The notes: a model not told the origin generated them from the letters alone. DNA of 64,000 nucleotides from Pseudomonadota bacterium (GCA_038142205.1 JAYQJO010000001.1:678527-742526); one strand, 5' to 3'. Positions 2,138-64,000 are shown, counted from the first letter of the stretch. Made by a program: numbers and translations.

Positions 2138-2290
2138 TTTTTCTTTTTTTCTCAGTGTTTGGTATTTTTATATTACCTGTCGTTAGTGCGGACGAAGACT
2201 CTGTGTCCGTTCCTTATTCTATTGATGGCATTAATCAGGATGATGTACTTGAAGATGGTAAGTTAAAAGGTAATGTCGAGTTTAAAAAAA
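2138..2290 (+). other. Homopolymer tracts (T5+T7 at 2138-2150; A7G4 at 2284-2294) that separate a signal-peptide-like N-terminus from the body of the surface-protein gene. They may be phase-variation switches or homopolymer miscalls.
   Basis: Three reading frames each carry one protein-like piece of a single N-terminal region. Switching frame at the T and A runs gives a continuous signal peptide plus mature protein. Confidence 0.45.
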
Positions 2291-4735
2291 GGGGAGAACT
2301 CTAAAACCATTACAATAAAAATAAAAAAGGATGCGAGTAAAAGTGGTGATGACGAACCTAAATTCTCACTTGGCGAAACGGATGATAAGAAAGTAAAACG
2401 CGGTAAAAATAATTCCGTCGCGATTAAACTGCCTGATACTCTGAAGCCTGCTGTCGCGAAAAACACCCCACCGACGGGTGCTGATAAGACAATTCAGGTA
2501 TTAGGAAACGACTCTTATACAAAAGCTTCGGAATATAGTGGCGCTTATTATGAATTTTCAGAAAAAGACTATGGTTTTAGTGATGCAGATGAGGGTGATT
2601 CTCTTTATACAGTTAAAATACTAAGTTTACCTGAGAGAGGGTGGTTATCAGGAGTTTTCTCTAATGGTACTTCAGGAAATCCGAAAGTCGGTGATGTGTT
2701 AGATAGTATTTATCTTGATGCATTGAGGTATTACCCCGTCGATGATGAGAGCGGTACCGTTAGTTTTCAATTTAGTGTCTCTGACAGTAAAGCCTTTTCT
2801 GTGCCCTATACCATGACGTTGAATTTTTCATGTCCTGAAGGTGAAGAATTAAAAGATGGTAAGTGTGTTGCAAAGAATACCCCACCGACGGGTGCTGATA
2901 AGACAATCCAGGTATTAGGAAACGACTCTTATACAAAAGCTTCGGAATATAGTGGCGCTTATTATGAATTTTCAGAAAAAGACTATGGTTTTAGTGATGC
3001 AGATGAGGGTGATTCTCTTTATACAGTTAAAATACTAAGTTTACCTGAGAGAGGGTGGTTATCAGGAGTTTTCTCTAATGGTACTTCAGGAAATCCGAAA
3101 GTCGGTGATGTGTTAGATAGTATTTATCTTGATGCATTGAGGTATTACCCCGTCGATGATGAGAGCGGTACCGTTAGTTTTCAATTTAGTGTCTCTGACA
3201 GTAAAGCCTTTTCTGTGCCCTATACCATGACGTTGGATTTTTCTGCTGTAGAGAAAACGAACACGCCTACTATTCAAGCCAACAGAAATATCATTGCGAA
3301 ACCGAATCCGGTTGAGTCAGGTGGTGTCGTCAGTCTTGATGCCAGAGGTACAGGTGTTTTTTATCAATATACAATTGAACCCGGTGCTCATACTGAAAGA
3401 TGGGAAGGATTTTGTGTTCCCGGCATTGCCGATAGAGCAACAATTGAGGATAACTCAAGCAAAACACCTGGGAATAACTTTAGCAAAAAAGGTCCTGCTC
3501 CATTTAATTTCATAGATGGAAAAATCGTTTTTGAGAATGATACGCTTAAAACCACGTGGACTGCGCCGATCAATACGACGAATGAAGTTATGACGTGTAA
3601 ATTAACGGTTATTGCTTCAAACAACGACGGCAATGCGTTTGCTCAATCTGTATTTGTCACTGTCTTACCTACTAAACAAGTCGCTGATACCAATTTGGTC
3701 GATGACAAACTGACACCCAAACCTAAGAAGGAATTTAAGTTAGTCGAGAACAGCAGGAAATTCTTGTTATATGATTCGCGTTTAATTAATGGCATCAGCT
3801 TAACTCAAGAAACAAGCTTTACTGATGCAGTTAATGCCGCTATTAATTGTCCTGCCAATAAACCGATACTTTGTTCGGATATGACATGTGCGGTATCAGA
3901 CGATGCGTGTACGACAACAACAACTACGACCACAACAGCCGCTGCGCCACCTGAAATCTGCGGTAACCTTGTTGATGATGATGGAGATACTCTTATCGAC
4001 TTTGCCGACCCTGATTGTACTACTGCGGAAAACGCTGGTGCAGGAAACTGTGGTGATTTTTTTGATAATGATAATGATGGCTTAACAGATTTTGCCGACG
4101 CTGGTTGTACTACTGCGGAAAACGCTGGTGCAGGAAACTGTGGTGATTTTTTTGATAATGATAATGATGGCTTAACAGATTTTCTCGACCCTGATTGTGT
4201 TGAAACAATATGTAATGACTTTACTGATAATGACAGTGATGGCGCTATAGATTTTGCTGACCCTGATTGTACTACTGCGGAAAACACTGGCGCAGGAAAT
4301 TGTGCTGACGGATTTGATAATGATAATGATGGCTTAACAGATGGGGCTGACCCAGATTGCGCACCAGCGTCATCGGCATTAACACTGGTTCCGCCTTTAC
4401 TTAACGATACTTCGTTTGCAAATACAATTGTGATTGTCGTCAATGGAGCAAATCTTAGTACGGTAATAGATGCTGACGCAGACTCGGTGGCGAACTCGCT
4501 ATTTCATGTACAGTTTACTGGTCCAGGAAGTGCTCTTGCGGTTCCTGCCACAGGTACCACTGTTGATAACACGAATATGTTGATGGACGGACCAAACATT
4601 GGACTCGGTTTTACAAGAGGCGGTATTACTTATGAAATCAATCTCGGTTTGACCATTACTTTTGACGATGACATTACCACCGATGCCTTGAGCGGTAGAA
4701 ATTGTGGGGCAGGAGGGACAGCACCATGTCCATGA
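2273..4735 (+). CDS. Large repeat-rich surface protein. It contains a 138-aa tandem duplication, a poly-Thr linker, and Cys-bracketed DxDxDG calcium-binding-like repeats. The true start may lie upstream at 2114, reached through two homopolymer frame changes.
   Basis: An 820-aa ORF. Near-identical direct repeats lie at 2459-2832 and 2873-3246. 'TTTTTTTTAAAPP' follows. Then come three 30-aa units, 'CTTAENAGAGNCGDFFDNDNDGLTDFADxxC'. The ATG at 2114 (frame 2) encodes 'MMRTLNYIFFFF'. Frame 1 continues as 'FSVFGIFILPVVSA|DEDSVSVPYSIDG...' after a T5/T7 run at 2138-2150. It rejoins the frame of 2273 at the A7 run at 2284-2290. Confidence 0.65.
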   Translation: MSSLKKGENSKTITIKIKKDASKSGDDEPKFSLGETDDKKVKRGKNNSVAIKLPDTLKPAVAKNTPPTGADKTIQVLGNDSYTKASEYSGAYYEFSEKDYGFSDADEGDSLYTVKILSLPERGWLSGVFSNGTSGNPKVGDVLDSIYLDALRYYPVDDESGTVSFQFSVSDSKAFSVPYTMTLNFSCPEGEELKDGKCVAKNTPPTGADKTIQVLGNDSYTKASEYSGAYYEFSEKDYGFSDADEGDSLYTVKILSLPERGWLSGVFSNGTSGNPKVGDVLDSIYLDALRYYPVDDESGTVSFQFSVSDSKAFSVPYTMTLDFSAVEKTNTPTIQANRNIIAKPNPVESGGVVSLDARGTGVFYQYTIEPGAHTERWEGFCVPGIADRATIEDNSSKTPGNNFSKKGPAPFNFIDGKIVFENDTLKTTWTAPINTTNEVMTCKLTVIASNNDGNAFAQSVFVTVLPTKQVADTNLVDDKLTPKPKKEFKLVENSRKFLLYDSRLINGISLTQETSFTDAVNAAINCPANKPILCSDMTCAVSDDACTTTTTTTTTAAAPPEICGNLVDDDGDTLIDFADPDCTTAENAGAGNCGDFFDNDNDGLTDFADAGCTTAENAGAGNCGDFFDNDNDGLTDFLDPDCVETICNDFTDNDSDGAIDFADPDCTTAENTGAGNCADGFDNDNDGLTDGADPDCAPASSALTLVPPLLNDTSFANTIVIVVNGANLSTVIDADADSVANSLFHVQFTGPGSALAVPATGTTVDNTNMLMDGPNIGLGFTRGGITYEINLGLTITFDDDITTDALSGRNCGAGGTAPCP
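2459..3246 (+). repeat. Tandem direct duplication inside the surface-protein gene. The copies are 2459-2832 and 2873-3246 with a 414-bp period.
   Basis: About 372 bp with only 3 mismatches, encoding a 122-aa module 'AKNTPPTGADKTIQVLGNDSYTK...SVPYTMTL'. Confidence 0.9.
4016..4350 (+). repeat. A 90-bp tandem repeat (two identical copies at 4016-4105 and 4106-4195, and a diverged third at ~4268-4350). It encodes the motif 'CTTAENAGAGNCGDFFDNDNDGLTDFxDxxC'.
   Basis: Read directly from the sequence. Confidence 0.85.
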
Positions 4736-5295
4736 TGAAAATAATTACATTCAAAGCATCAATAGCGGCTCTTCTGCTCATGTTTACTTTAGGCAGTATT
4801 CATACTGATGTTGAAGCGCGTGATTTTCGTTCTATCCGCTATGTCGAGTCACCTAAACTCAAAGACATGATAAACAAAGCCCAATTTAAAGATGGTGGTT
4901 TATCGCCAGAAGCAGAGGGGCTTAATTTAAAACCGATTCCGCAAGAAGCGGTACGGCAAGCCGTGCGTGATTTTTTTGCGGCATGGAACAATGGTCCTGG
5001 TTCGTTGGCTTCACATCTTGATCCGGAGTTTGTGAATGCCGCTCGCTTAATTGATTCAATTAATGATGTTGTACCCAGAGATGCCACCGTACGCGTGCTG
5101 GCGATCAGTTCGATAGTAACGCGACCCGACGAAATAGTTTGGTTATCAGAAGAAGATAAAACTAAGGGTTTTGATAGGAAAACCAAAGTTTCTGTCGTTG
5201 TTACGACGCAACTTGAATTTACTAATACCAATGGATTACAAAAAATTAGGGGTAATAGTGAATATAACTTTAACGTCACTGAGGAATACAGATAA
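4726..5295 (+). CDS. Hypothetical secreted protein (~190 aa).
   Basis: ATGs at 4726, 4732 and 4735 overlap the TGA of the upstream gene. The N-terminal signal peptide is 'MKIITFKASIAALLLMFTLGSIHT'. No recognisable family. Confidence 0.5.
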   Translation: MSMMKIITFKASIAALLLMFTLGSIHTDVEARDFRSIRYVESPKLKDMINKAQFKDGGLSPEAEGLNLKPIPQEAVRQAVRDFFAAWNNGPGSLASHLDPEFVNAARLIDSINDVVPRDATVRVLAISSIVTRPDEIVWLSEEDKTKGFDRKTKVSVVVTTQLEFTNTNGLQKIRGNSEYNFNVTEEYR

Positions 5296-16746: not shown

Positions 16747-18008
16747 TTAATATATTTTTTCCCCTTCAGTTTTGGCAACAATAACTGCGCAACAACTGTC
16801 ACTAAATACGTTTACAGCTGTTCTTGTCATATCCAGAATCCTGTCCGTTACCAGAAGCAAGCCAATTCCTTCCAACGGTAAACCAATAACACCGAGAATA
16901 ACAGTAATTGCGACAAGACTGGCTGCAGGAATACCGGCAACACCGATTGATGTTAAAAGAGCGACAAGAACGATTGTAAACTGTGTTGTAAAAGTCAGAT
17001 CCAGACCATAAGCTTGAGCAATAAATATTGCAGCAACACACTCATATAAAGCCGTACCATCCATGTTGATGGTTGCCCCTAACGGTAATACGAAAGAAGT
17101 TGTCTGGTTTGATACGCCTGCCTTTTTTCTATACATTCCATAGTAATGGGTAATGTGCCTGAGGAAGACGCCGTTGAAAAAGCAGTAAGCATTGCCGGAG
17201 CCATCGTCGTGTAATGACTTAACGGGTTTATCTTTACAACAGTTTTTAATAATAAAGCCAGCGTTATAAATTTATGAAAAAGTAGTGCCAGTAATACAGT
17301 TATAAAAAATAAAAGCAAGGGCTGGAAAGCACTAAAACCAGTAGCCGTAATTGTTTTAGCCACAAGCCCAAATACACCGATGGGCGCAAACTTCATAACA
17401 AACATGGTTATTGCCATCATTGTGTTAAACACGCCTTGCCAGAAGTTTTCTAAAGCCTGTTTTTGTTGTCCAGCAAGTTGGCTCATAAAATAGCCAAATA
17501 ACATGCCGAAGAAGATGAGTCCAAGCATTTGACCTTCGGCTGCTGCTTTTACGATATTGGTCGGCACCATACGAAGAAAAACATCGGTTATATCACTGGC
17601 ACTGCGATCTTCAACACGTTCTAATTGAGAAGCGACTTCTGTATCTGTACTCAGATTGAGTATTTCTCCTGCCGGTTTCCCATCAACGATGCCAGGCGTT
17701 AGAACATTGACAAAAATTAGGCCGATAAGAATAGCTAATAGACTTGATAATAAATAAAAACCTATTGTTTTACTTCCCAGTCGTCCAAGGTTTTCACTAG
17801 CACCGATACTGGATATGCCGCAAATAATAGAGGAAAGCACAAGCGGCACGATGATCATCTTCAGCGCATTTAGAAAAAGGGTGCCGATAAAGCTAAAGAT
17901 GCTATAGAAAGTGACACTGCCTATAGCAGTGTCCTTATCTATCATTGCCCCAATCAGCATTGCCAAAATAATGGCAATAAGAATTTGCCAATGTAATTTC
18001 AGCTTCAT
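16747..18008 (-). pseudogene. Dicarboxylate/amino-acid:cation symporter (DAACS, GltP/SstT-like), split by a -1 frame change in a T6/A6 run at 17123-17128.
   Basis: The N-terminal ORF 17079-18008 and C-terminal ORF 16747-17136 overlap. The expected DAACS motif '...[13 protein letters not shown]|[27 protein letters not shown]' is restored if the A6 run (minus strand) is A7. Confidence 0.65.
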
Positions 18009-21148: not shown

Positions 21149-22120
21149 TGGCTTATATCGTAAGGCGTATTGCTTATGCCATTCCCATACGCATAGGTGT
21201 CAATATCATTACGTTTCTATTGTTTTTTGTTGTTAATACACCTGATGATATGGCTCGTATGCAACATGGCGCGAAACATGTTAGTGAAGCTGCCATAGAA
21301 AAGTGGAAAGAAGAAAGGGGCTATGACAAACCGATACTCTGGAACAGCGATGCCGAAGCATCAGAAAAAATAACGGATACGATCTTTTTGAAAACTCAGT
21401 AAAACTGTTTTTGTTTGATTTTGGTCGTTCAGATAGTGGCCGTGATATTAGTTATGATATCAGTCAGCGTATGTGGCCCAGTCTTTCTATTACAGTACCC
21501 AGTTTACTATTAGGTCTATTGGCCTATATCACCTTTGGTTTAATACCGCCTTCTTCCGCGGCAGTTATATTGATGTATCCGGTGTTATTCTTTGTGTTGC
21601 CATGATGTCGATATCCGGTTTGTTTTATATTATTGGCGGCCAGTTTCTAATAGGTAAAGTTCTGCATCTTGTGCCTATTTCCGGCTATGACACAGGGCTT
21701 AATGCAATTAAATTTACAGTCTTACCCGTATTAATCGGTTTGGTTGGCGGTATTGGTGCGAGTACCCGTTGGTATAGAACTATTTTTCTTGAAGAGATGG
21801 GGAAGGATTATGTGCGTACAGCAAAAGCGAAAGGCTTATCAGAAACGATAGTTTTATATAAACATGTATTAGCGAATGGACTTATTCCAATTTTGACGGG
21901 AGTTGTTGTTATTCTGCCTACTTTATTTATGGGGAGTTTAATTGTTGAGTCCTTTTTCGCTATTCCCGGTTTAGGCAGCTATACCATCGATGCAATTAGT
22001 GCGCAGGATTTCGCCATTGTACGCTCGATGGTCTTCCTAGGTTCTGTGCTTTATATTATTGGTTTGATATTAACTGACATCTCTTACACTCTCGTTGATC
22101 CAAGAGTGAGGCTAAACTAA
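21145..22120 (+). pseudogene. YejB-like ABC permease, interrupted by two -1 frame changes (near 21365-21395 and near 21548-21560).
   Basis: Three consecutive ORFs in frames 1, 3 and 2 (21145-21402, 21411-21605, 21473-22120) together align colinearly with E. coli YejB. The matched segments are 'MMAYIVRRIAYAIP...', '...LFLFDFGRSD...SITVPSLLLG...', and '...RGSYIDVSGV...EAA-loop...DISYTLVDPRV'. Confidence 0.6.
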
Positions 22121-36903: not shown

Positions 36904-37700
36904 TTATTTACGCGTCAGTTTATCTAGATAGTCATCTGCATCAACCATGTCTTCCATGGCCTTGCGTTCGAGCATATTGACAATTCTTGGGTCAGGCGAT
37001 TTTCTGATTATGTTTTTATCACCGGTAATAATCTGATGACCGTCATCCAATACAGTAATTCGATCTGCAATTTTAAAAGCACTATCCAGATCATGCGTGA
37101 CAACAACAATGGTCATATTAAGAGCATCACGTAATTGCAAAATTAAATCATCAAGTTCAGCCGAAGTAACCGGGTCAAGACCTGCTGAAGGTTCATCAAA
37201 AAAAGTACTTCCGGATCCATCACAACAGCTCTGGCTAAACCTGCTCGTTTTAACATGCCACCAGATAGTTCAGCAGGCATGAGTGTTTCACTATCACCTA
37301 AATTCATTAATTCAAGTTTAAGGCGAGACATAATGCGTATTGTATTTTTATCAAGCTTGGTGTGTTCGTGTAAAGGCAGTTCTACGTTTTCCTGAAGTGT
37401 CATCGAGCTGAATAAGGCGCCATTTTGAAAAGCAACGCCAATCCTACGTCGTAAAGCGTGCAACTCTTTCGTTTTTAGACGAGTTACTTCTTCATTCAGT
37501 AGTTTGATTGAACCTGATTTGGGTTTATTCAGGCCTATCATATGTCTTAATAGTGTACTTTTACCGGAGCCGCTATGCCCCATGATGACCATGATTTCCT
37601 TGTGGACTACATTTAAAGAAATATTCGACAGAATTTGTCTATCGCCATACCAGGTATTTAAACCTTCTATTTCAATAATGTTTTCCGGTGTTTCACTCAT
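36904..37700 (-). CDS. mlaF: ABC ATPase MlaF, interrupted by a -1 frame change in an A7/T7 run at 37198-37204.
   Basis: ORF 37143-37700 carries Walker A 'GHSGSGKST' and the signature 'LSGGMLKRAGLARA'. It then reads 'DPEVLF|LMNLQQ...'. The expected 'DPEVLFFDEPSAGLDP...' is restored when the run is T8. The downstream ORF 36904-37140 carries the H-loop 'VVVTHDL'. Confidence 0.75.
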
Positions 37701-37774: not shown

Positions 37775-39247
37775 TTATAAAGAAGGGTTTGTTATACGAC
37801 TGCTTATCTGTTTTGCCAATTGTAATGATTCATTCAACTCGATTTCGGATAGTTCACTTTTAAGCCTGTCTCTGCGATGTAAATCCATTGCATTTCCAGT
37901 GTAGGCAACTACTTCATACCATGCCAATGCTTGCACCTTATTTTGTTCTACTCCTGTACCATTGAGGTACATTGTTGCCATATTTCTTTGAGCAATGGTA
38001 TGGCCTTGTTCAGCTGCTTTTCGATACCATTCGGCGGCCTGTTTATTATCTTGCCGCACGCCTTCACCATATGCGAATGCAACGCCCAGCTTATATTGTG
38101 CAAGTACATAACCTTGTTCTGCTGCTTCATAAAAAAGATTAAAAGCAGTGCGATCATTCTGAGGAACACCATCACCAAAAGTATAGGCTAAAGCTTGCTC
38201 ATATAACGCTTCAACAGAGTTATCATTTTCAGTTTGTTCATCATCAAGACTAACTAATTGTGAAGTGTTAGTTGTTTCTACTTCTGTTTCTTCAATAATA
38301 GCTACTTGTGTTTTTTGTATATTAGCAAGATTGTGCTCAGCTGAAGTATGTCCTTGTTCTGCTGCCATGGCATACCATTCTGCAGCTTGCTCATCGTTTT
38401 GTTCGACACCTTCTCCCATTAACTACATGTTGCCTAAACTGTACTGCGCATCAATATTGCCTTGTTGCGCCGCGCGTCTATACCAAAGCGCGGCTTGAAT
38501 GTAGTCTTGTTTAACATCATTACTCGCATAATATAACGTGCCTAATTGATACTGAGCATCAGCATCACCTTGCGTAGCTAATGAACGGATACGATCTATT
38601 TCAGACAATGTTGGAACATTTTCGGCAAGTTCTTCATTAACTGTTGTTTCAATTTCTGTTGTAGATTCGATAGTTTCACTATCAGCTAAGGCAATAGTTT
38701 CTGTGTTTTCATCACTACTACCGAATAAGCGTGAAAAGAACCCAGGTGATTCTTCCTCTATAGCAGGTTCACTTATTTCTATATCAGCGATTAATCCAGA
38801 CTCTTCATTAGAAGCAAGTTCAAATGTTTCTATAGGCTCTTCAACTATTTCTTCGGCACTTGCTGTTTTTGTTTCTGTAGTAACGATTTCTTCATCATTT
38901 ACAGATTCTACTTCTTTTATTTCATTCGTTGTTTGAAGAGCGATAGCATCAACGTCTTCTTTCGTTTTTTGTTGGTCATCATTACCAAATAACCGTGAAA
39001 AGAAACCTGGTGAATTTTCTTTTTCTGCTATCGTTGTGTTATTGGGTTCTATCTCTGTTATTAACTCTGTTTCTTCTTCATTAAAAATAACTTCGTTTTC
39101 TATTGTTTCATCTACGATTGTAGTCTTTTCGACTTCAACAACTTTATTTTCTTCTGTTTCGTCAGTCTCTAAAGTTGCAAAATCATCTTGTTTTTCTTCT
39201 TCCTCATTAATTGCCTCAGTTTTTGCTGTTTCTTGTTCTGTTGCCAA
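37775..39247 (-). pseudogene. Sel1-repeat protein with an in-frame TAG at 38423-38425. The N-terminal half is acidic low-complexity and contains two 'SPGFFSRLFG' motifs. It may be the continuation of the upstream Sel1 gene.
   Basis: ORFs 38423-39247 and 37775-38419 are in the same frame, separated only by the TAG. Read through, the sequence is 'AQYSLGNM-*-LMGEGVEQNDEQAAEWYAMAAEQGH', a canonical Sel1 repeat in which Tyr (TAY) is replaced by TAG. Upstream there is no ATG. The frame is open back to the A7 run at 39298-39304. Confidence 0.6.
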
Positions 39248-39285
39248 CGCATCAAGTTTTAACTGATTTTCTCTGTTTAATGCTT

Positions 39286-41136
39286 CTAATTTTTCCAGGT
39301 TTTCAAGATTTTTTTAGCAGCAGAATGTCCTTGGTCACTTGCCAAACTATACCATTTGGCAGCGTTCGCATTACTCTGCTCTACATTCTCCCCAAGAAGA
39401 TACATATTACCTATGCTGTATTGTGCATCAACATTGCCTTGGTCGGCCGCTTTCTTATACCAGTTATAAGCTTGTTCTATGTCTTTATTAACGCCTTTAC
39501 CCACATAATAAAGAGAACCTAGATGAGCTTGCGCCTCATCATCTCCTGCGTCTGCTAATGCTTTAAAATGATTGTAAGCGTCATCATAATTATTATTAGC
39601 GAGAGCACGACGACCATCATCTATACTGTGCTGTTCTATATTTGTTTCTGCTTTTTCAGCTAGTCCAGTTTCTTCTACAACTGTTTGAGATTCTAATTCG
39701 GAAGTTTCAGTTTTGTTGCTACTAAACAAACGGCTAAAGAAACCACCTGATGGTTCTTTTTCTTCAGACGCTAAATCGTTTGAACTTCCTCCATTATCTA
39801 TTTCTTCTTGTGTTGTGTCTGCCCAGTTATTTTCAGCGGCCTCTATTTGTCCTTCGGTTTCTTCTACCTGAGTAGCGAGTTCTATTTCTTTTTCTTCATT
39901 ATCTATTTCTTCCTGTGTTGTATCTGCACTGTTATTTTCAGCAACGTTAATTTGTTCTTCTGTTTCCATTGCTTCTGTCTTTTTAATGTCAGGTTCAGCA
40001 GTAATTTCTTCAACAGGTTTTTGTTTAATAACTTCTGTAACTATTTCTTCTTCAGGTTTATCTGCTATTTCATTTTTAGCAATTATCTTTTCAACTTCAG
40101 GTTCGACCGTCGTTTCTATAGTTGCTTCCGGTTTTACAATATCCAGTTCAGATTCATCAAGTGATAATAATCCTTCTTTTTCTACACTGAACAAGGGTTC
40201 TTTTTTCGTTTCTTTAGATTCTTCAACTTGTTGTTGTGGCGTTTGTTCTATTTCAGCAATAGTTTCTTCTTCAACGGTATCTTCTATTACTTCTTGTTTT
40301 TTTGTTGGAGTAGACTCAGAGCTTGTTTCTGAAACTGAAGGTATTTCCGGTTTTGTTTGAATAGCACGCGTTGCAACGTTGGCTGCTGCGGAACGTTCTA
40401 AACTGGCTAATTCATTAGTTGCAGCAGCATAACCTTGATCTGATGATTGTCTGAACCAGCGTTTAGCTTGAGCATAGTTTTGTTCTACGCCTTTACCTGA
40501 ACGATACATAGTGCCATGGTTATATTGTGCTGTTGCATCACCGCGATCTGCTGCTAAACGGTACCAACGAACTGCCTGAGAATAATCCTGCTCTACACCT
40601 TCGCCTGTATGATACATACTGCCCAAATGAACTTGCGCGCGTGCATAACCTTGTTCCGCCGCTTTTTTGAACCAGCTTGCGGCTTCTTTCTGGTCTTGCG
40701 ACACACCTTCACCATAAGCATAAGAAATACCAAGACTGTATTGTGAAACGACATGTCCCTGTTCAGCGGCTCGACGGTACCAGATTGCAGCTTCTGTTAA
40801 ATTTTGTTTTACGCCTTCACCAAAAGCATAAGATACTGCGAGATTATATTGTGCATCGCGATTGCCTTGCGTTGCTGCTTTTCGATACCAAAAAACAGCA
40901 TTTTCAAAACTTTGAGGGACACCTTCGCCAGCATAATACATATAGCCGAGATTCGCTTGAGCGTTAGCATCACCGTTTTCAGCTAATTCCGTAAATTCTT
41001 TTACGGCCTTTTCATAGTCACCTCTGGAAAGTGCATTATTGGCGCTGTAAATATCTGCCTGAGCAGTGAAGGTGTATATTGAAAGTAGGGCGATTGACAG
41101 AAAACGTGTCATTGTTACCAATCCTTTATGAACCAT
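39286..41136 (-). CDS. Secreted Sel1-repeat protein. It has Sel1 repeats, then an acidic linker with 'GGFFSRLFS', then more Sel1 repeats.
   Basis: 616-aa ORF. The signal peptide is 'MTRFLSIALLSIYTFTAQA' (likely start ~41112). It has at least 10 Sel1 units of the type 'AQxxLGxMYxxGxGVxQDxxxAxxWYRKAAEQG'. Confidence 0.7.
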   Translation of the reverse strand: MVHKGLVTMTRFLSIALLSIYTFTAQADIYSANNALSRGDYEKAVKEFTELAENGDANAQANLGYMYYAGEGVPQSFENAVFWYRKAATQGNRDAQYNLAVSYAFGEGVKQNLTEAAIWYRRAAEQGHVVSQYSLGISYAYGEGVSQDQKEAASWFKKAAEQGYARAQVHLGSMYHTGEGVEQDYSQAVRWYRLAADRGDATAQYNHGTMYRSGKGVEQNYAQAKRWFRQSSDQGYAAATNELASLERSAAANVATRAIQTKPEIPSVSETSSESTPTKKQEVIEDTVEEETIAEIEQTPQQQVEESKETKKEPLFSVEKEGLLSLDESELDIVKPEATIETTVEPEVEKIIAKNEIADKPEEEIVTEVIKQKPVEEITAEPDIKKTEAMETEEQINVAENNSADTTQEEIDNEEKEIELATQVEETEGQIEAAENNWADTTQEEIDNGGSSNDLASEEKEPSGGFFSRLFSSNKTETSELESQTVVEETGLAEKAETNIEQHSIDDGRRALANNNYDDAYNHFKALADAGDDEAQAHLGSLYYVGKGVNKDIEQAYNWYKKAADQGNVDAQYSIGNMYLLGENVEQSNANAAKWYSLASDQGHSAAKKILKTWKN

Positions 41137-59689: not shown

Positions 59690-60439
59690 TTATTGAAGGG
59701 TTTCAGGTAAGAATAAGCTTTCTATGTCTGAAGTTATTTCAATATTTTTGAACTTTGTTGCTTGATGCTTCCATCTATACTGACTGTATTTGATAACTCG
59801 TTGTTTTATTTTGTCAATCTCATCAGGTGAAATTTCAGCTCTTATCTCTTGTAGATGAGATATTATTTTATCAAGTAAGTTATCTTTTTGTTTTTGTTGT
59901 ACAAGCATTAAGCGATATTTTTTATTTTTATATTGTTTTCTATCAGCAGTTAAATTTTTACTGGCATATTCGTAGATGAACTGATGTGCAGCAACAACCA
60001 TCCAGGCATACGCATTGATGCTATTTTGTTTTACACCTGAGCCGTTTAGATACATCAGCCCAAGATGATATTGCCCTAATGGGTATCCAAGCTTTGCTGA
60101 TTTTTGATAATAGCGTATCGCTTTTTTAGTACTTTTCTTTGTGCCAACGCCTTCTTCATACATTACACCGAGCTTATACATCGCATCAGCACGTCCATTT
60201 TGAGCCGCTTCTTTAAAGAGTTCAAATGCCTTTTTTAGATCTTTTTCTACACCTTGTCCTGCTACATACATTGAGCCCAGGGCATACATGGCGCGATGAT
60301 CACCACGTTTAGCCAGAGGAATAAATTCATTTGCAGCAGTTTCGTAATCACCTCTTATATAAGCATCTCCGCCATCTTTAAAATCAGCATGGCATAATAG
60401 TGGGGTTAAAACTGAAAAATATAAAATAATACGCTTCAT
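59690..60439 (-). CDS. Secreted Sel1-repeat protein (249 aa).
   Basis: A signal peptide is present, plus about 4 Sel1 units ('AMYALGSMYVAGQGVEKDLKKAFELFKEAAQNG...'). Confidence 0.75.
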   Translation of the reverse strand: MKRIILYFSVLTPLLCHADFKDGGDAYIRGDYETAANEFIPLAKRGDHRAMYALGSMYVAGQGVEKDLKKAFELFKEAAQNGRADAMYKLGVMYEEGVGTKKSTKKAIRYYQKSAKLGYPLGQYHLGLMYLNGSGVKQNSINAYAWMVVAAHQFIYEYASKNLTADRKQYKNKKYRLMLVQQKQKDNLLDKIISHLQEIRAEISPDEIDKIKQRVIKYSQYRWKHQATKFKNIEITSDIESLFLPETLQ

Positions 60440-60441
60440 TT

Positions 60442-63078
60442 TTATGTCAGCTCAAATGACTCTACCATGTTTGATTCAGTAAGATTTTTCTGAATTTCTC
60501 CGACAAAATTGCCCAAGGTATAATCTGTTCCTGCAGTAATTGCATCAGTTAATAGCGTTGAGTCCTCTATGCCGTATGTAATGATTTTTATATTTTTTGA
60601 TTTAATATATTGAAGTAAGGTTAGTTTTTCTTCTTGTTCTTCATTATCTGAGACACTGTTTTCTTCTGAATTTGGTGCAAGCACATCTGATAATTTTTGT
60701 AACTGTTCGGTATTTGCAATCAATAACTTTGATGTGGTTAAAGAACAATATTCAGATAAGTTTTCAATCGTGTTTAAATTCGAAAGCGAAACAGTAAAGC
60801 CGTGCGTTTTACGTAAAGTATCAATCAATGCCTGAGCACGTTTTTGATGCTTAATAAAAAGATCAAGTGGCACATCCAATATTATTGATTTTCCGGGGCT
60901 GTATTTTTTTGTTTGCTGCAATATTTTTTGTAACCACTGGAATAATGCTATATCTGAAAACCACGATTCAGTTGCACTAACTAAAAAAAGATACTGACAT
61001 TCACTGGTGCCACTTTCTGTAATTCTCAAGAATATTTGTCTGAGTACCCATTCATTTATTGCTTGTTGTAATGTAAGTGAAAAAGCAGAAGTGTCTGCTA
61101 AATATTCATTAAGCGCTTCATTTTCTGATAAAGCTTGAAGCCCTGTTTTATAAATTTCTCTGGGATCGCTTTCATCTTCAAACATGGCAGTAACAGGTTG
61201 ATACGTCTGAATGATTTTGTTTTCATCAATTAATTTATTGATTTGACTTTCGATTTCTTCAATCGAAGACTCGCTGTTTTCTTCGTTTTCATCTTCCTGC
61301 TTTGTTTTCTGAGCTGCTTTTTCATTAGCTTGCTTTTGCACTTCTTCCTGAAGTGCATTGCTATTTTTAGTTTCTTCTATTTTCGTTATCCGTGGAGTCA
61401 CTTCTTTGTTATCAGCAGGTTTTTCTACTTCAGTATCTGGCTGATTTTTCTGATTAGTTTTGACCTCAGTCATCGCTTTTAATTCAGCTTCTAATTTTTC
61501 TTTTTGTTCTCTCGCTGCTCGCATTTCTGCTTCAGCTTCTTCCTTTGCTTTGGCAATTGCTTTTAATTCAGCTTCCATTTTTTCTTTTTCTTGCCGTGCC
61601 GCATTCATTTTTGCTTCAGCTTCGGCTTTTTCATTTTCTTCTTGTTCTGCTCGAAGAGCGACTTGGGCCTTTTCGGCCTCTTCTCTCGCTTTTAGTTGAG
61701 CTTGAAGTTTTTCTTTTTCTTCTTCGGCAGCTTTAATTTTCGCTTCAGCTTCAGCTTTTTCTTTTGCTTCCTGTTCTGCTCGAAGAGCGACTTGGGCCTT
61801 TTCGGCTTCTTCTCTCGCTTTTAGTTGAGCCTGAAGTTTTTCTTTTTCTTCTTCGGCAGCTTTAATTTTCGCTTCAGCTTCAGCTTTTTCTTTTGCTTCC
61901 TGTTCTGCTCGAAGAGCGACTTGGGCCTTTTCAGCTTCTTCTCTCGCTTTTAGTTGAGCCTGAAGTTTTTCTTTTTCTTCTTCGGCAGCTTTAATTTTCG
62001 CTTCAGCTTCAGCTTTTTCTTTTGCCTCTTGTTCTTCTTGTATAGCAGCTTGTGCTTTCGCTTGTTCTTCTCTCGCTTTTAATTCAGCTTCAAGCTTTTC
62101 TTTTTCTTCTTCGGCAGCTTTAATTTTCGCTTCAGCCTCAGCTTTTTCTTTTGCTTCTTGTTCAGCATGAGCAGCTTGTTCTTTCGCTTGTTCTTCTCTA
62201 GCTTTTAATTCGCCCTCAAGTTTTTCTTTTTCTTCTTCGGCAGCTTTAATTTTCGCTTCAGCTTCAGCTTTTTCTTTTGCCTCTTGTTCTTCTTGTAGAG
62301 CAGCTTGTTCTTTCGCTTGTTCTTCTCTAGCTTTTAATTCGCCCTCAAGTTTTTCTTTTTCTTCTTCGGCAGCTTTAATATTCGCTTCAGCTTCAGCTTT
62401 TTCTTTTGCTTCCTGTTCAGCTTGTATAGCAGCCTGTGTTTTTTCAGCTTTTTCCTTTGCTTTTAATTCGGCCTCAAGTTTTTTCCTTGCTTCTTCGGCA
62501 GCTTTAATTTTCGCTTCAGCTTCGATTTTTTCTTTTTCTTCTTCGGTAGCTTTAATTTTCGCTTCAGCTTCGGCTTTTTCTTTTGCTTTTCGTTCAGCTT
62601 GTAGCGCGGATTGCGCTTTTTCAGCTTCTTCCTTTGCTTTTAATTTAGCTTCGAGTTTTTTCTTTTCCTCTTCTATGGCCAGCATCTTTGCTTCAGCTTT
62701 TTCTTTCGCCTCCTGTTCTGCTTTCAAAGCTGCTTGCGCTTTTTCTGCTTCTTCTTTTGCTTTTAATTGAGTCTGGAGTTTTTCTTTTTCTGCTTCAGCC
62801 GCTTTAATTCTTGCTTCAGTCTCGGTTTTTTCTTTCGCTTTTTGCTCAGCTTTTAATGCAGCTTGTGCTTTTTCTGCTTCTTCCTTGCTTCTTAATTCTG
62901 CTTCAAGTTTTTCTTTTTCTTCTTCGGCGACTCTAATTCTCGCTTCAACTTCTTCTTTTTCTTTTAGAATGGCTTTAGACTTTTCTTCATTTTTTTCTGC
63001 CGATAAAGTTTCAGCTGCAATTGCATCATTTTGAGACTGTTCTACAAGCTCAGAGGGAGGGCATCTGAATCTTTCCAT
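60442..63078 (-). CDS. The C-terminal two-thirds of a c-di-GMP signalling protein. It has about 14 tandem 43-aa E/K/A-rich helical repeats followed by a degenerate EAL domain.
   Basis: The repeats are of the form 'AEAEAKIKAAEEEKEKLQAQLKAREEAEKAQVALRAEQEAKEK', encoded by 129-bp units at ~61440-62990. The C-terminal ~260 aa have an EAL-fold topology ('TYQPVTAMF', '...IITYGIEDSTLLTDAITAGTDYTLGNFVG'). However, the EAL and DDFGTG motifs are replaced. Confidence 0.7.
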   Translation of the reverse strand: MERFRCPPSELVEQSQNDAIAAETLSAEKNEEKSKAILKEKEEVEARIRVAEEEKEKLEAELRSKEEAEKAQAALKAEQKAKEKTETEARIKAAEAEKEKLQTQLKAKEEAEKAQAALKAEQEAKEKAEAKMLAIEEEKKKLEAKLKAKEEAEKAQSALQAERKAKEKAEAEAKIKATEEEKEKIEAEAKIKAAEEARKKLEAELKAKEKAEKTQAAIQAEQEAKEKAEAEANIKAAEEEKEKLEGELKAREEQAKEQAALQEEQEAKEKAEAEAKIKAAEEEKEKLEGELKAREEQAKEQAAHAEQEAKEKAEAEAKIKAAEEEKEKLEAELKAREEQAKAQAAIQEEQEAKEKAEAEAKIKAAEEEKEKLQAQLKAREEAEKAQVALRAEQEAKEKAEAEAKIKAAEEEKEKLQAQLKAREEAEKAQVALRAEQEAKEKAEAEAKIKAAEEEKEKLQAQLKAREEAEKAQVALRAEQEENEKAEAEAKMNAARQEKEKMEAELKAIAKAKEEAEAEMRAAREQKEKLEAELKAMTEVKTNQKNQPDTEVEKPADNKEVTPRITKIEETKNSNALQEEVQKQANEKAAQKTKQEDENEENSESSIEEIESQINKLIDENKIIQTYQPVTAMFEDESDPREIYKTGLQALSENEALNEYLADTSAFSLTLQQAINEWVLRQIFLRITESGTSECQYLFLVSATESWFSDIALFQWLQKILQQTKKYSPGKSIILDVPLDLFIKHQKRAQALIDTLRKTHGFTVSLSNLNTIENLSEYCSLTTSKLLIANTEQLQKLSDVLAPNSEENSVSDNEEQEEKLTLLQYIKSKNIKIITYGIEDSTLLTDAITAGTDYTLGNFVGEIQKNLTESNMVESFELT
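61440..62990 (-). repeat. About 14 tandem copies of a 129-bp (43-codon) coding repeat, several identical at the nucleotide level.
   Basis: The periodicity is seen in 'tcttcggcagctttaattttcgcttcagc' recurring at 61721, 61850 and 61979 (interval 129). Confidence 0.85.
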
Positions 63079-63716
63079 ATGTAAAAGGAATTGCCTATTG
63101 AGCTACTAGCATTATCACATGCTGCAGATGCTATATAAATTAACTGTCCTGCTGTTTTATCAAATACCCCAAGTTTTAAAATACCTATGCTGACAGAAAA
63201 AACATATTTTTCTTCAGCGAACTTAAAAGTACTTTTTGCAAGATGATCACATAAACCTTGCATATTAAAACTCAGTGTTTCCAAATTAATCGGGTAATCA
63301 ATTTGAATTCCAATTTCTGTATCACTAATTTTTGTAATATTTGGGTTGCATGCGCCTAATTTAAAAGTGTCATAACTGTTTTTCGCAATGTGATTGATTA
63401 ACCTGTCTTTGCCTATGACACCAACCTGTTCTTCAATAAGATCAAGATTGTCAGGTTTGATAATAATAAGTGCACGCTCAGGAAGGTTTGAATCAAATGC
63501 TTTTTCAAGATTTTCATAAAATACTTCTTTGCTAAAAGAGCGGTTATGTTGTGTTAATTCCTGTTTTTTTTGGCGTTCAGCTTTTTTAGCTTCCCATGCA
63601 TGGATGACGGATTGTTTTAATTTGTCTTTGGTTAGTGACTGTTTAGGTAGGTATTCATATATTCCCGTTTTTAATGCGCGCACCGCAATTTCTTCAGTGC
63701 CTGCGCCTGTTAGCAT
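63042..63716 (-). CDS. Degenerate GGDEF-like domain; the middle segment of the same signalling gene.
   Basis: '...MLTGAGTEEIAVRALKTGIYEYLPK' is the end of a REC domain. Then come GGDEF-like elements ('ALIIIKPDNLDLIEE', 'KYVFSVSIGIL') without a GG(D/E)EF motif. The 37-nt overlap with the downstream ORF is in a frame that differs by one nucleotide, as a single-base deletion would produce. Confidence 0.6.
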   Translation of the reverse strand: MLTGAGTEEIAVRALKTGIYEYLPKQSLTKDKLKQSVIHAWEAKKAERQKKQELTQHNRSFSKEVFYENLEKAFDSNLPERALIIIKPDNLDLIEEQVGVIGKDRLINHIAKNSYDTFKLGACNPNITKISDTEIGIQIDYPINLETLSFNMQGLCDHLAKSTFKFAEEKYVFSVSIGILKLGVFDKTAGQLIYIASAACDNASSSIGNSFYIWKDSDALPLSL

Positions 63717-63979
63717 TATTGTTGCGGGGAATGTGTTTTTTTGTGATGCTTATGGAGTACATCCAGTCCTGTTGTTCCAACGATCGATAAGTGATAATCA
63801 AGTAACAATACATCTATATCTGACCAGTTATAGCTATCATCAGGCACGCCTTCAAAAACCGGATCAAGTTCAATAACTTCAGTGCCGGGTAAAAGCTTGC
63901 TGATAAATGTATTTATTAATTTACGATAATCAGAATTATCATCGATGATTAATATTTTTTCTAAATTAGAATCAGACAT
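63716..63979 (-). CDS. Response-regulator receiver (REC) domain; the N-terminal segment of the same gene. It is separated from the rest by a -1 frame change in a T7/A7 run at 63737-63743.
   Basis: 'KILIIDDNSDYRKLI...DVLLLDYHL...GLDVLHKHHKK'. Then, with A8 in place of A7, 'NTFPATIMLTGAGTEEIAVRALKTG' gives a complete CheY-like fold. Confidence 0.7.
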   Translation of the reverse strand: MSDSNLEKILIIDDNSDYRKLINTFISKLLPGTEVIELDPVFEGVPDDSYNWSDIDVLLLDYHLSIVGTTGLDVLHKHHKKTHSPQQ

Positions 63980-64000
63980 AAGTTATAAAAATTATTGTAT

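Follow-up and report, generated by a model that had tools for sequence, protein, structure and literature searches.

Three consecutive open reading frames (ORFs) on the minus strand of a 64,000-nucleotide (nt) stretch of a Pseudomonadota genome (GCA_038142205.1 JAYQJO010000001.1:678527-742526; hereafter the window) are one gene that encodes one signaling protein. The gene occupies 60442..63979 (-) and, once two insertions or deletions (indels) are repaired, specifies 1178 amino acids (aa) arranged as a receiver (REC) domain, a linking helix, a degenerate GGDEF domain, a helical repeat rich in E, K and A, a polar linker, and a degenerate EAL domain. Gene coordinates are window positions throughout, and residue numbers refer to the repaired protein. 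On balance, we favor the view that this is an enzymatically dead, FimX-related two-component adaptor, encoded by an intact gene and containing a long spacer of the single alpha-helix (SAH) type. Our preference draws mostly on the parts of this picture that can be demonstrated directly, namely a single gene, the domain folds, the loss of motifs, the chemistry of the receiver, the SAH-like statistics of the spacer, and the pattern of selection.

The ORFs span 63979-63716 (87 aa), 63716-63042 (224 aa), and 63078-60442 (878 aa), each opening with an ATG, and all three lie where an earlier note on this DNA had reported them. In a six-frame translation the reading frame shifts by one position at each junction. 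The Pfam receiver match is divided between ORF1 (profile positions 1-67) and ORF2 (75-109), indicating that a single receiver domain has been cut in two. DNA alignment identifies the lesions responsible. The first, at 63736..63742 (-), is a run of seven A (T7 on the plus strand) that is one base short relative to L019, L004, and the same-species assembly L031; the relatives and the same-species assembly carry one base more (AAAAAGAA or A8). The second, at 63052..63061 (-), falls in CCCTCCCTCT, where the window has two extra bases, CT, at 63054-63055 compared with L019 and L031. The earlier note was right that a homopolymer tract is one base short but gave its position as 63737-63743; likewise, its second lesion does fall inside 63042-63078 but is a 2-nt insertion rather than a single-base deletion. 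The repaired gene has zero further stops across its 1178 codons, which makes exact the product length previously put at ~1,180 aa.

Independent assemblies of the same species were recovered by looking up the neighboring Sel1 and SDR genes. One of these, L031, is 99.9% identical to the window in DNA, with 13 mismatches over 13.8 kb, and its sole two indels relative to the window are the two frameshift sites. In L031 the N-terminal part of the gene stays open in a single frame past both sites, and its sequence there is identical to the repaired one (...HKHHKKNTFPATIML... and ...DSDALPELVEQSQND...); the sequence restored at the first site is thus that of an independent assembly, as expected of the single protein proposed earlier. 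In L019, which has the same gene neighborhood, the counterpart is a single 1119-aa ORF (P0039) with 89% identity in the N-terminal part. At least 12 relatives have an uninterrupted ORF of 767-1119 aa, the eleven besides P0039, from genome and metagenome collections, measuring 767-1087 aa. Exact look-ups of the 878-aa ORF, the 224-aa ORF, and an MlaE-like neighbor found no contigs, and metagenomes scanned with the N-terminal profile gave no sequence of the same species (best 79%). The ratio of nonsynonymous to synonymous substitution rates (dN/dS) between the repaired window gene and L019 is 0.08 in the N-terminal part and 0.11 in the C-terminal part, and amino-acid changes unique to the window lineage are not in excess.

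The window lacks single bases elsewhere as well. It is one base short at 17129, 21390, and 21547, where two independent short-read assemblies (L041 and L042) are concordant. The base missing at 21390 lies in a T5 run, and that at 21547 lies at 'TACCGCC', inside an ORF at 21473-22120. A sodium:dicarboxylate symporter (SDF) gene at 16747-18008 (-) is present as ORFs of 309 and 129 aa, with the missing base in the T6 run at 17123-17128; the symporter is intact, at 420 aa, in two independent same-species short-read assemblies. An MlaF-like ABC ATPase gene at 36904-37700 (-) is likewise split, into ORFs of 185 and 78 aa, at the T7 run 37198-37204. The addition of one base gives a normal 265-aa protein (...FFDEPSAGLDP...VVTHD) in which Walker B, D-loop, and H-loop are present.

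That the three ORFs are instead separate genes, each with its own translation, is scarcely credible. Every ORF starts with an ATG, but the ORFs overlap, the receiver domain would be interrupted midway, the relatives and the same-species assembly have a single frame, and the internal ATGs have no Shine-Dalgarno-like sequence ahead of them, in keeping with the continuous protein of the earlier note. Separate transcription units were rejected, as promoter- and terminator-like sites occur at or below shuffle expectation and are not enriched. Programmed frameshifting and transcriptional slippage were also rejected: the frame is continuous in orthologues and in the same-species assembly, and the second site has no slippery sequence. 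More weight attaches to whether the split is a real lesion. We consider it very probably an artefact of assembly, because L031 is in one frame and the window alone has single-base losses at other sites, mostly in T runs. The competing explanation, which we judge improbable, is a genuine and very recent strain-specific pseudogene, with two real frameshifts that perhaps leave an 878-aa repeat-plus-EAL fragment. It gains from the fact that both indels between the window and L031 across 13.8 kb sit in this one gene. One of these, the 2-nt insertion, is moreover no homopolymer miscall and is unlike the typical homopolymer error, so that the lesions might be real in this strain, a point that weighs against an artefact. 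Gene loss may also recur in the family, given the stops in the relative L002 and the several frame changes in L012. The single-base losses at three further sites, together with the split ABC ATPase, form a pattern typical of consensus indel errors, and this speaks against a pseudogene, as do the absence of extra stops in the repaired codons, the dN/dS of ~0.1, the lack of an excess of lineage-specific changes, and the internal ATGs without Shine-Dalgarno-like sequence.

At L002:2841 and L002:3366 (on the same contig as L007), in-frame TAA codons stand in the repeat, one of them a GAA changed to TAA within LEAELKA, and the frame is otherwise continuous. In L012:8522-9449 there are four frame changes in the N-terminal 310 codons, and the neighboring gene for a cyclic nucleotide monophosphate (cNMP)-binding protein is split; together these suggest a low-quality, probably long-read, metagenome-assembled genome (MAG).

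The receiver domain comprises residues 1-117 (63630..63979, -) and is supported by Pfam (PF00072), alignments, PDB profile matches, and an AlphaFold2 (AF2) model. Its phospho-acceptor set is complete: the acidic pair D13/D14, the acceptor D61, T91, and K113 are invariant or nearly so in the family alignments. In the orthologue P0039 the PF00072 domain is intact (E 1e-10, 42 bits against a cutoff of 30.2, profile 1-109), and PDB profile matches of the receiver reach E-values down to 2e-13. A helix at residues 118-148 (63537..63629, -) links the receiver to the GGDEF-like domain and, by the AF2 model and Foldseek, resembles the stalk of DgcR and WspR. Residues ~150-305 (63066..63533, -) have the GGDEF fold according to profile matches, Foldseek, and alignment. 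Read from the alignment, this domain has SDTEI at the position of the GGDEF motif and CNPN at that of the RxxD I-site; cyclase activity is excluded because both motifs are absent. The Pfam GGDEF match is faint and sub-threshold (E 0.061, 13.5 bits).

A profile of the N-terminal 330 aa gives strong receiver matches, as well as matches to the full length of the Rec-GGDEF cyclase DgcR (6zxm, E 9e-8) and to an isolated GGDEF domain (3icl, 1.2e-4). The AF2 model of the homologue P0001, with a mean predicted local distance difference test score (pLDDT) of 82, consists of the receiver (1-117), the helix (118-148), an alpha/beta domain (150-301), a low-confidence stretch (313-329), and an unbroken helix (332-426). 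With the N-terminal model as query, Foldseek places DgcR (6zxb, E 7e-17), WspR (3bre), and PleD on top, and it matches GGDEF domains with TMt of 0.7-0.8, including 3icl (0.79) and the GGDEF domain of FimX (3hva, 0.76). The N-terminal REC-GGDEF-like part is probably a dimerizing sensor module as in DgcR or WspR. Both of the N-terminal domains named in the earlier note are therefore recovered: Pfam, PDB profiles, and the AF2 model agree on a CheY-like receiver, and profile searches, Foldseek, and the motif reading agree on a GGDEF fold that lacks the GGDEF motif.

The helical repeat rich in E, K and A extends over 497 aa, residues 340-836 (61471..62961, -), as defined by Tandem Repeats Finder (TRF), a table of units, DNA identities, and statistics that compare SAH with coiled coil. 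Its period is 129 nt (43 aa), with a TRF score of 1226 that is far beyond chance. There are 11 units, of 43, 41, 43, 16, 43, 43, 42, 43, 43, 43, and 43 aa, and after them come two degenerate units of ~27 aa, so the ~14 perfect units over ~600 aa described earlier were an overcount. Contrary to another statement of the earlier note, no units are identical in DNA: the best pair, units 9 and 10, agrees at 128/129 nt, unit 11 at 123-124/129, and older units at 88-108/129 (68-84%), and the longest exact direct repeat in the array is 101 nt. Same-species short-read assemblies break inside this array, with contig ends at 61672 and ~62355. On the plus strand the repeat also yields a series of spurious ORFs with near-identical products (MSLKFFFFFFGSFNF...) at 61243-62082 (+), which are repeat artefacts and not genes.

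In composition the repeat is ~28% E, 24% A, and 19% K, with 11% hydrophobic residues. There are 145 pairs of opposite charges at i,i+4, about twice the 68 +/- 7 that shuffled sequences give. At a period of 3.5, that of coiled coils, hydrophobic power is 0.01, below the 0.10 averaged over shuffles, and the best register fills a/d positions to 2.3/8, with no heptad core. From the dense i,i+4 pairs, the missing 3.5 periodicity, and the low a/d occupancy, the repeat is most likely a monomeric ER/K-type SAH and not a coiled coil, the first of the two options that the earlier note had named. If fully helical, it would have a contour length of ~75 nm. The persistence length of ER/K helices is ~15 nm, which would give a root-mean-square end-to-end distance of ~40 nm.

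After the repeat, a polar, proline-containing linker (61273..61470, -), read from the translation and variable in the alignment, leads from the helix to an EAL-fold domain of 276 aa (60445..61272, -). The latter lacks the catalytic residues and ends in VESFELT; alignment, PDB profile, AF2, Foldseek, and residue mapping all support its assignment. Among sequences 49-90% identical to that of the window, the C-terminal 276 aa have a mean column identity of 61%, and the VESFELT tail is invariant. PDB matches of the family's C-terminal profile are to FimX EAL domains only (best 4f3h), full length but weak (E 0.03). The AF2 model has a pLDDT of 71.7 and a predicted template modeling (TM) score, pTM, of 0.73. 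In Foldseek searches of the PDB with this model, the best 50 matches are all EAL domains, with FimX first (E 1.8e-8, TM 0.63-0.70; overall TM 0.6-0.7). Pfam finds no EAL match in the 878-aa ORF at E<=1, and even at E<=5 neither this ORF nor the isolated repeat has any match; an NCBIfam scan of the C-terminal domain gives no match. P0018, a distant homologue without the repeat, does have Pfam REC, GGDEF, and EAL matches, and FimX EAL is its best match. Checks by profile and by structure thus find GGDEF- and EAL-fold similarity in the domains that flank the spacer, and AF2, Foldseek, and residue mapping agree on an EAL fold without the EAL and DDFGTG motifs, as previously claimed.

Residues were mapped through an alignment of 20 sequences that includes FimX. 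Relative to FimX, ExLxR is replaced by KTGLQ, DDFGTG by LSNLNT, KxD by LIAN, EGVE by YGIED, and QG by LG. The contacts of Pseudomonas aeruginosa FimX (PaFimX) with cyclic di-GMP (c-di-GMP) are L477, R479, D507, E654, and Y673 (PMC3527489). One of these five is kept, the equivalent of E654, and the other four become G, Q, N, and N. In detail, PaFimX YEVLLR corresponds to YKTGLQ in the window protein (E475K, L477G, R479Q), IDRW to INEW (D507N), IKID to LIAN (K616 to I), FVES to GIED (E654 kept), and QGY to LGN (Y673 to N). Nearly the entire wider family has Q in place of R479. Judged from these residues and the predicted structure, the EAL fold is retained and the canonical c-di-GMP pocket is lost.

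Two further alternatives concern the spacer and the C-terminal domain. The spacer could be a parallel dimeric coiled coil that passes a register shift from a REC-GGDEF dimer to an EAL-like dimer, in the manner of an extended S-helix. The REC-GGDEF relatives DgcR and WspR are indeed dimeric through helical stalks, the repeat period of some orthologues (28 or 14 aa) is a multiple of the heptad, and a weak hydrophobic periodicity at 43/12 = 3.58 residues, reached by 2% of shuffles, makes helix-helix packing possible. This periodicity counts against an isolated helix, and the structural evidence is limited to an AF2 monomer (P0001) in which the first 95 aa of the homologous region form a continuous helix (pLDDT 80-90), equally compatible with an SAH and a coiled coil. 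Between the GGDEF-like domain and the helix, ~25 aa are modeled with low pLDDT, and this segment cuts both ways: it argues against rigid mechanical coupling in our own picture, and it also counts against a coiled coil. The missing 3.5 periodicity, the sparse a/d positions, the few hydrophobic residues, and the proline-rich or short polar linkers found at the same position in other members all stand against a coiled coil, which we consider decidedly unlikely. As proline-rich tracts cannot form coiled coils, a monomeric spacer is favored over a dimerization device.

The remaining alternative is the model of the earlier note, in which the C-terminal domain has a FimX- or LapD-type receptor pocket for c-di-GMP that the helix holds far from the receiver. 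FimX EAL domains are the top matches in sequence and in structure, FimX and LapD bind c-di-GMP through EAL domains that are likewise degenerate (PMC3527489, PMC3032553), and the EAL-like domain is under strong purifying selection. The final 40 residues of its AF2 model are of low confidence, which counts against our own reading. The substitutions at E475, L477, R479, D507, K616, and Y673 (to K, G, Q, N, I, and N), with the E654 equivalent alone kept, and the change of R479 to Q across nearly the whole wider family weaken the receptor model, and there are precedents, YdiV and BluF among them, for EAL-like proteins with no c-di-GMP binding. With one of the five FimX contact residues surviving, binding of c-di-GMP by the EAL-like domain is doubtful, and we view the receptor model with the same reserve. 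Most likely, the EAL-like domain serves to bind a partner, either a protein or a nucleotide. The tail N[VI]ESFE[IL][TS], encoded by the last seven codons (60445-60465), is kept family-wide (P0040-P0085) even where the EAL-like domain has diverged, and this conserved C-terminal tail looks like a docking peptide.

Searched exhaustively with the profile, 1.84 billion representative proteins give 131 matches only, 53 of them at E<=1e-30, and FimX-sized proteins appear at E ~1e-6; these profiles define a small, uncharacterized family related to FimX. Its relatives are labeled as uncultured Gammaproteobacteria or Thiotrichaceae MAGs, and its members carry generic names only. The members that were fetched share the REC domain, the degenerate GGDEF domain (GGDEF*), a spacer, the degenerate EAL domain (EAL*), and the C-terminal tail N[VI]ESFE[IL][TS]. 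The spacer varies in length from 59 to 604 aa and takes several forms: rich in E, K and A in the window's own clade, classical ER/K-rich in P0051, P0053, and P0054, proline/alanine-rich in P0059, P0067, P0072, and P0085, and short and polar in P0044 and P0045. Orthologues within the clade differ in repeat period (43, 28, or 16 aa), which points to independent expansions, and even L019, a close relative, has a unit pattern unlike that of the window. Both end modules are under purifying selection, and the spacer is hypervariable. Since its length and chemistry vary, selection appears to act on having an extended spacer and not on its sequence.

Among described systems, FimX is the nearest solved relative by sequence profile and by structure, in line with the resemblance to FimX- or LapD-type receptors pointed out in the earlier note. 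FimX and LapD are the textbook degenerate GGDEF-EAL receptors for c-di-GMP, and their two domains pack against each other. FimX (P. aeruginosa PA4959, Xanthomonas FimX, and Filp of X. oryzae) resembles the window protein in having a receiver-type domain, a degenerate GGDEF domain, and a degenerate EAL domain; its EAL domain ranks first in both the profile (4f3h) and the structure comparison (4ag0, 4j40, 3hv9), and its GGDEF domain (3hva) matches too. Unlike FimX, the window protein has no PAS domain, with the GGDEF-like domain one helix after the receiver, so that it does not have the REC-PAS-GGDEF*-EAL* architecture. It also differs from FimX in a receiver that keeps all phospho-acceptor residues, in the helical spacer of ~500 aa between GGDEF and EAL, in the replacement of the EVLxR/QAFLR motif and of four of the five c-di-GMP contacts, and in the absence of type IV pilus genes within 10 kb. 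LapD (P. fluorescens and V. cholerae) likewise combines degenerate GGDEF and EAL domains in a receptor, and the structural matches include its EAL domain (6pwj, 3pju). In contrast to the window protein, LapD is a transmembrane HAMP protein with no receiver, and its GGDEF and EAL domains are packed directly through an S-helix with no long spacer.

The Rec-GGDEF cyclases DgcR, WspR, and PleD have the same arrangement of receiver, helical stalk, and GGDEF domain as the N-terminal 300 aa of the window protein, which differs in lacking the GGDEF motif and the RxxD I-site and in adding the C-terminal spacer and EAL-like domain. YdiV/STM1344 and BluF/YcgF, stand-alone or BLUF-linked proteins, act through protein-protein contact and, compared by description, are like the window EAL-like domain in having an EAL fold that lacks the catalytic residues. 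PD1671 of Xylella fastidiosa is a characterized regulator with REC, degenerate GGDEF, and degenerate EAL domains that keeps the EVL motif (PMC4374697); compared by description, its domain set is like that of the window protein, and no long spacer is described. In eukaryotes, the ER/K SAH domains of myosins, INCENP, and the KER region of CAF-1 are spacers of roughly 100 aa between two functional modules (PMC4183817, PMC5378345). The window spacer resembles these in its high E and K content, its enriched i,i+4 opposite charges, and its lack of a hydrophobic seam, and differs from them in its 24% alanine, its recent tandem repeats, its length of ~500 aa (several times longer), and its place in a bacterial two-component protein. 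Our searches of the open-access literature turned up neither an account of a GGDEF-EAL protein carrying a spacer of this kind nor anything relevant that links a single alpha-helix with c-di-GMP, consistent, within that literature, with the earlier statement that the arrangement is undescribed. The window protein is a variant among the FimX/LapD-like degenerate GGDEF-EAL proteins and no new category.

The gene order of cNMP-binding protein (210 aa), target gene, and Sel1 protein is kept in every locus that extends far enough. The downstream Sel1-repeat protein (59690..60439, -; Pfam Sel1 E 2.8e-29, and synteny) has 249 aa and a signal-peptide-like N-terminus, and its gene starts 2 nt past the stop codon of the target. 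It is probably co-transcribed with the target, though the Sel1 product would be exported and the target cytoplasmic. The upstream neighbor, a 210-aa protein with a cNMP-binding domain, lies just past window position 64000 and was read from relatives (L019:9315-9947) and the same-species assembly (L031:6143-6775). Its residues 44-73 match NCBIfam NF053729 ('cyclic di-GMP-binding domain-containing protein, MshE-related') with E 3.3e-6, below threshold, and the motif KRIGELLIELxxIxxEELxNALRxQ is kept in 14 orthologues; this gives a first hint that c-di-GMP input could enter through the upstream neighbor. No pil genes for type IV pili occur within the 10-kb flanks, and no histidine kinase was found nearby.

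It is plausible that these parts work together as follows. A histidine kinase would phosphorylate the receiver, and phosphorylation would alter the REC-stalk-GGDEF* module through its dimer geometry, as in DgcR or WspR. The helix would be a semi-rigid spacer or tether that places the EAL* module tens of nanometers away, or that sets a low effective concentration for end-to-end contacts. EAL* would bind a partner, possibly the upstream neighbor protein, and any link to c-di-GMP may run through that neighbor, with its MshE-type motif and cNMP-binding domain, and not through the EAL-like pocket. One point against this scheme is that the NF053729 match in the neighbor scores 26.8 bits, short of the curated cutoff of 38. 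A broader proposal, which we regard as unlikely but worth stating, is that in a clade of marine Gammaproteobacteria the MshE-type/cNMP protein, the REC-GGDEF*-spacer-EAL* protein, and the secreted Sel1 protein form a three-gene module in which the ~75-nm SAH is an evolvable tether or ruler, the phosphorylated receiver controls a distal, c-di-GMP-independent binding domain, and the length (59-604 aa) and chemistry of the spacer are the main evolutionary variables. If true, this would be the first bacterial signaling family in which an SAH-type spacer sets the signaling geometry.

As a candidate ER/K-type single alpha-helix in bacteria, the spacer is rare and very long. The family as a whole offers a natural series of spacer lengths, from 59 to ~600 residues and either helical or proline-rich, with which the effects of distance or effective concentration in bacterial signaling could be tested; this series is attractive for experiment.

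For the genome itself, the split genes indicate that the present assembly has indel errors that divide real genes, and pseudogene calls made from it need care. Two further ORF pairs in the window are unconfirmed candidates for a frameshift. The first is a Sel1-repeat pair at 38423-41136 (-), with a T7 run at 39309-39315, in which ORFs of 616 and 274 aa would join into 904 aa. The second is a cadherin-like pair at 2273-5295 (+), with GGGG at 4706, in which ORFs of 820 and 197 aa would join into 1007 aa. These pairs may be further assembly frameshifts or merely adjacent genes.

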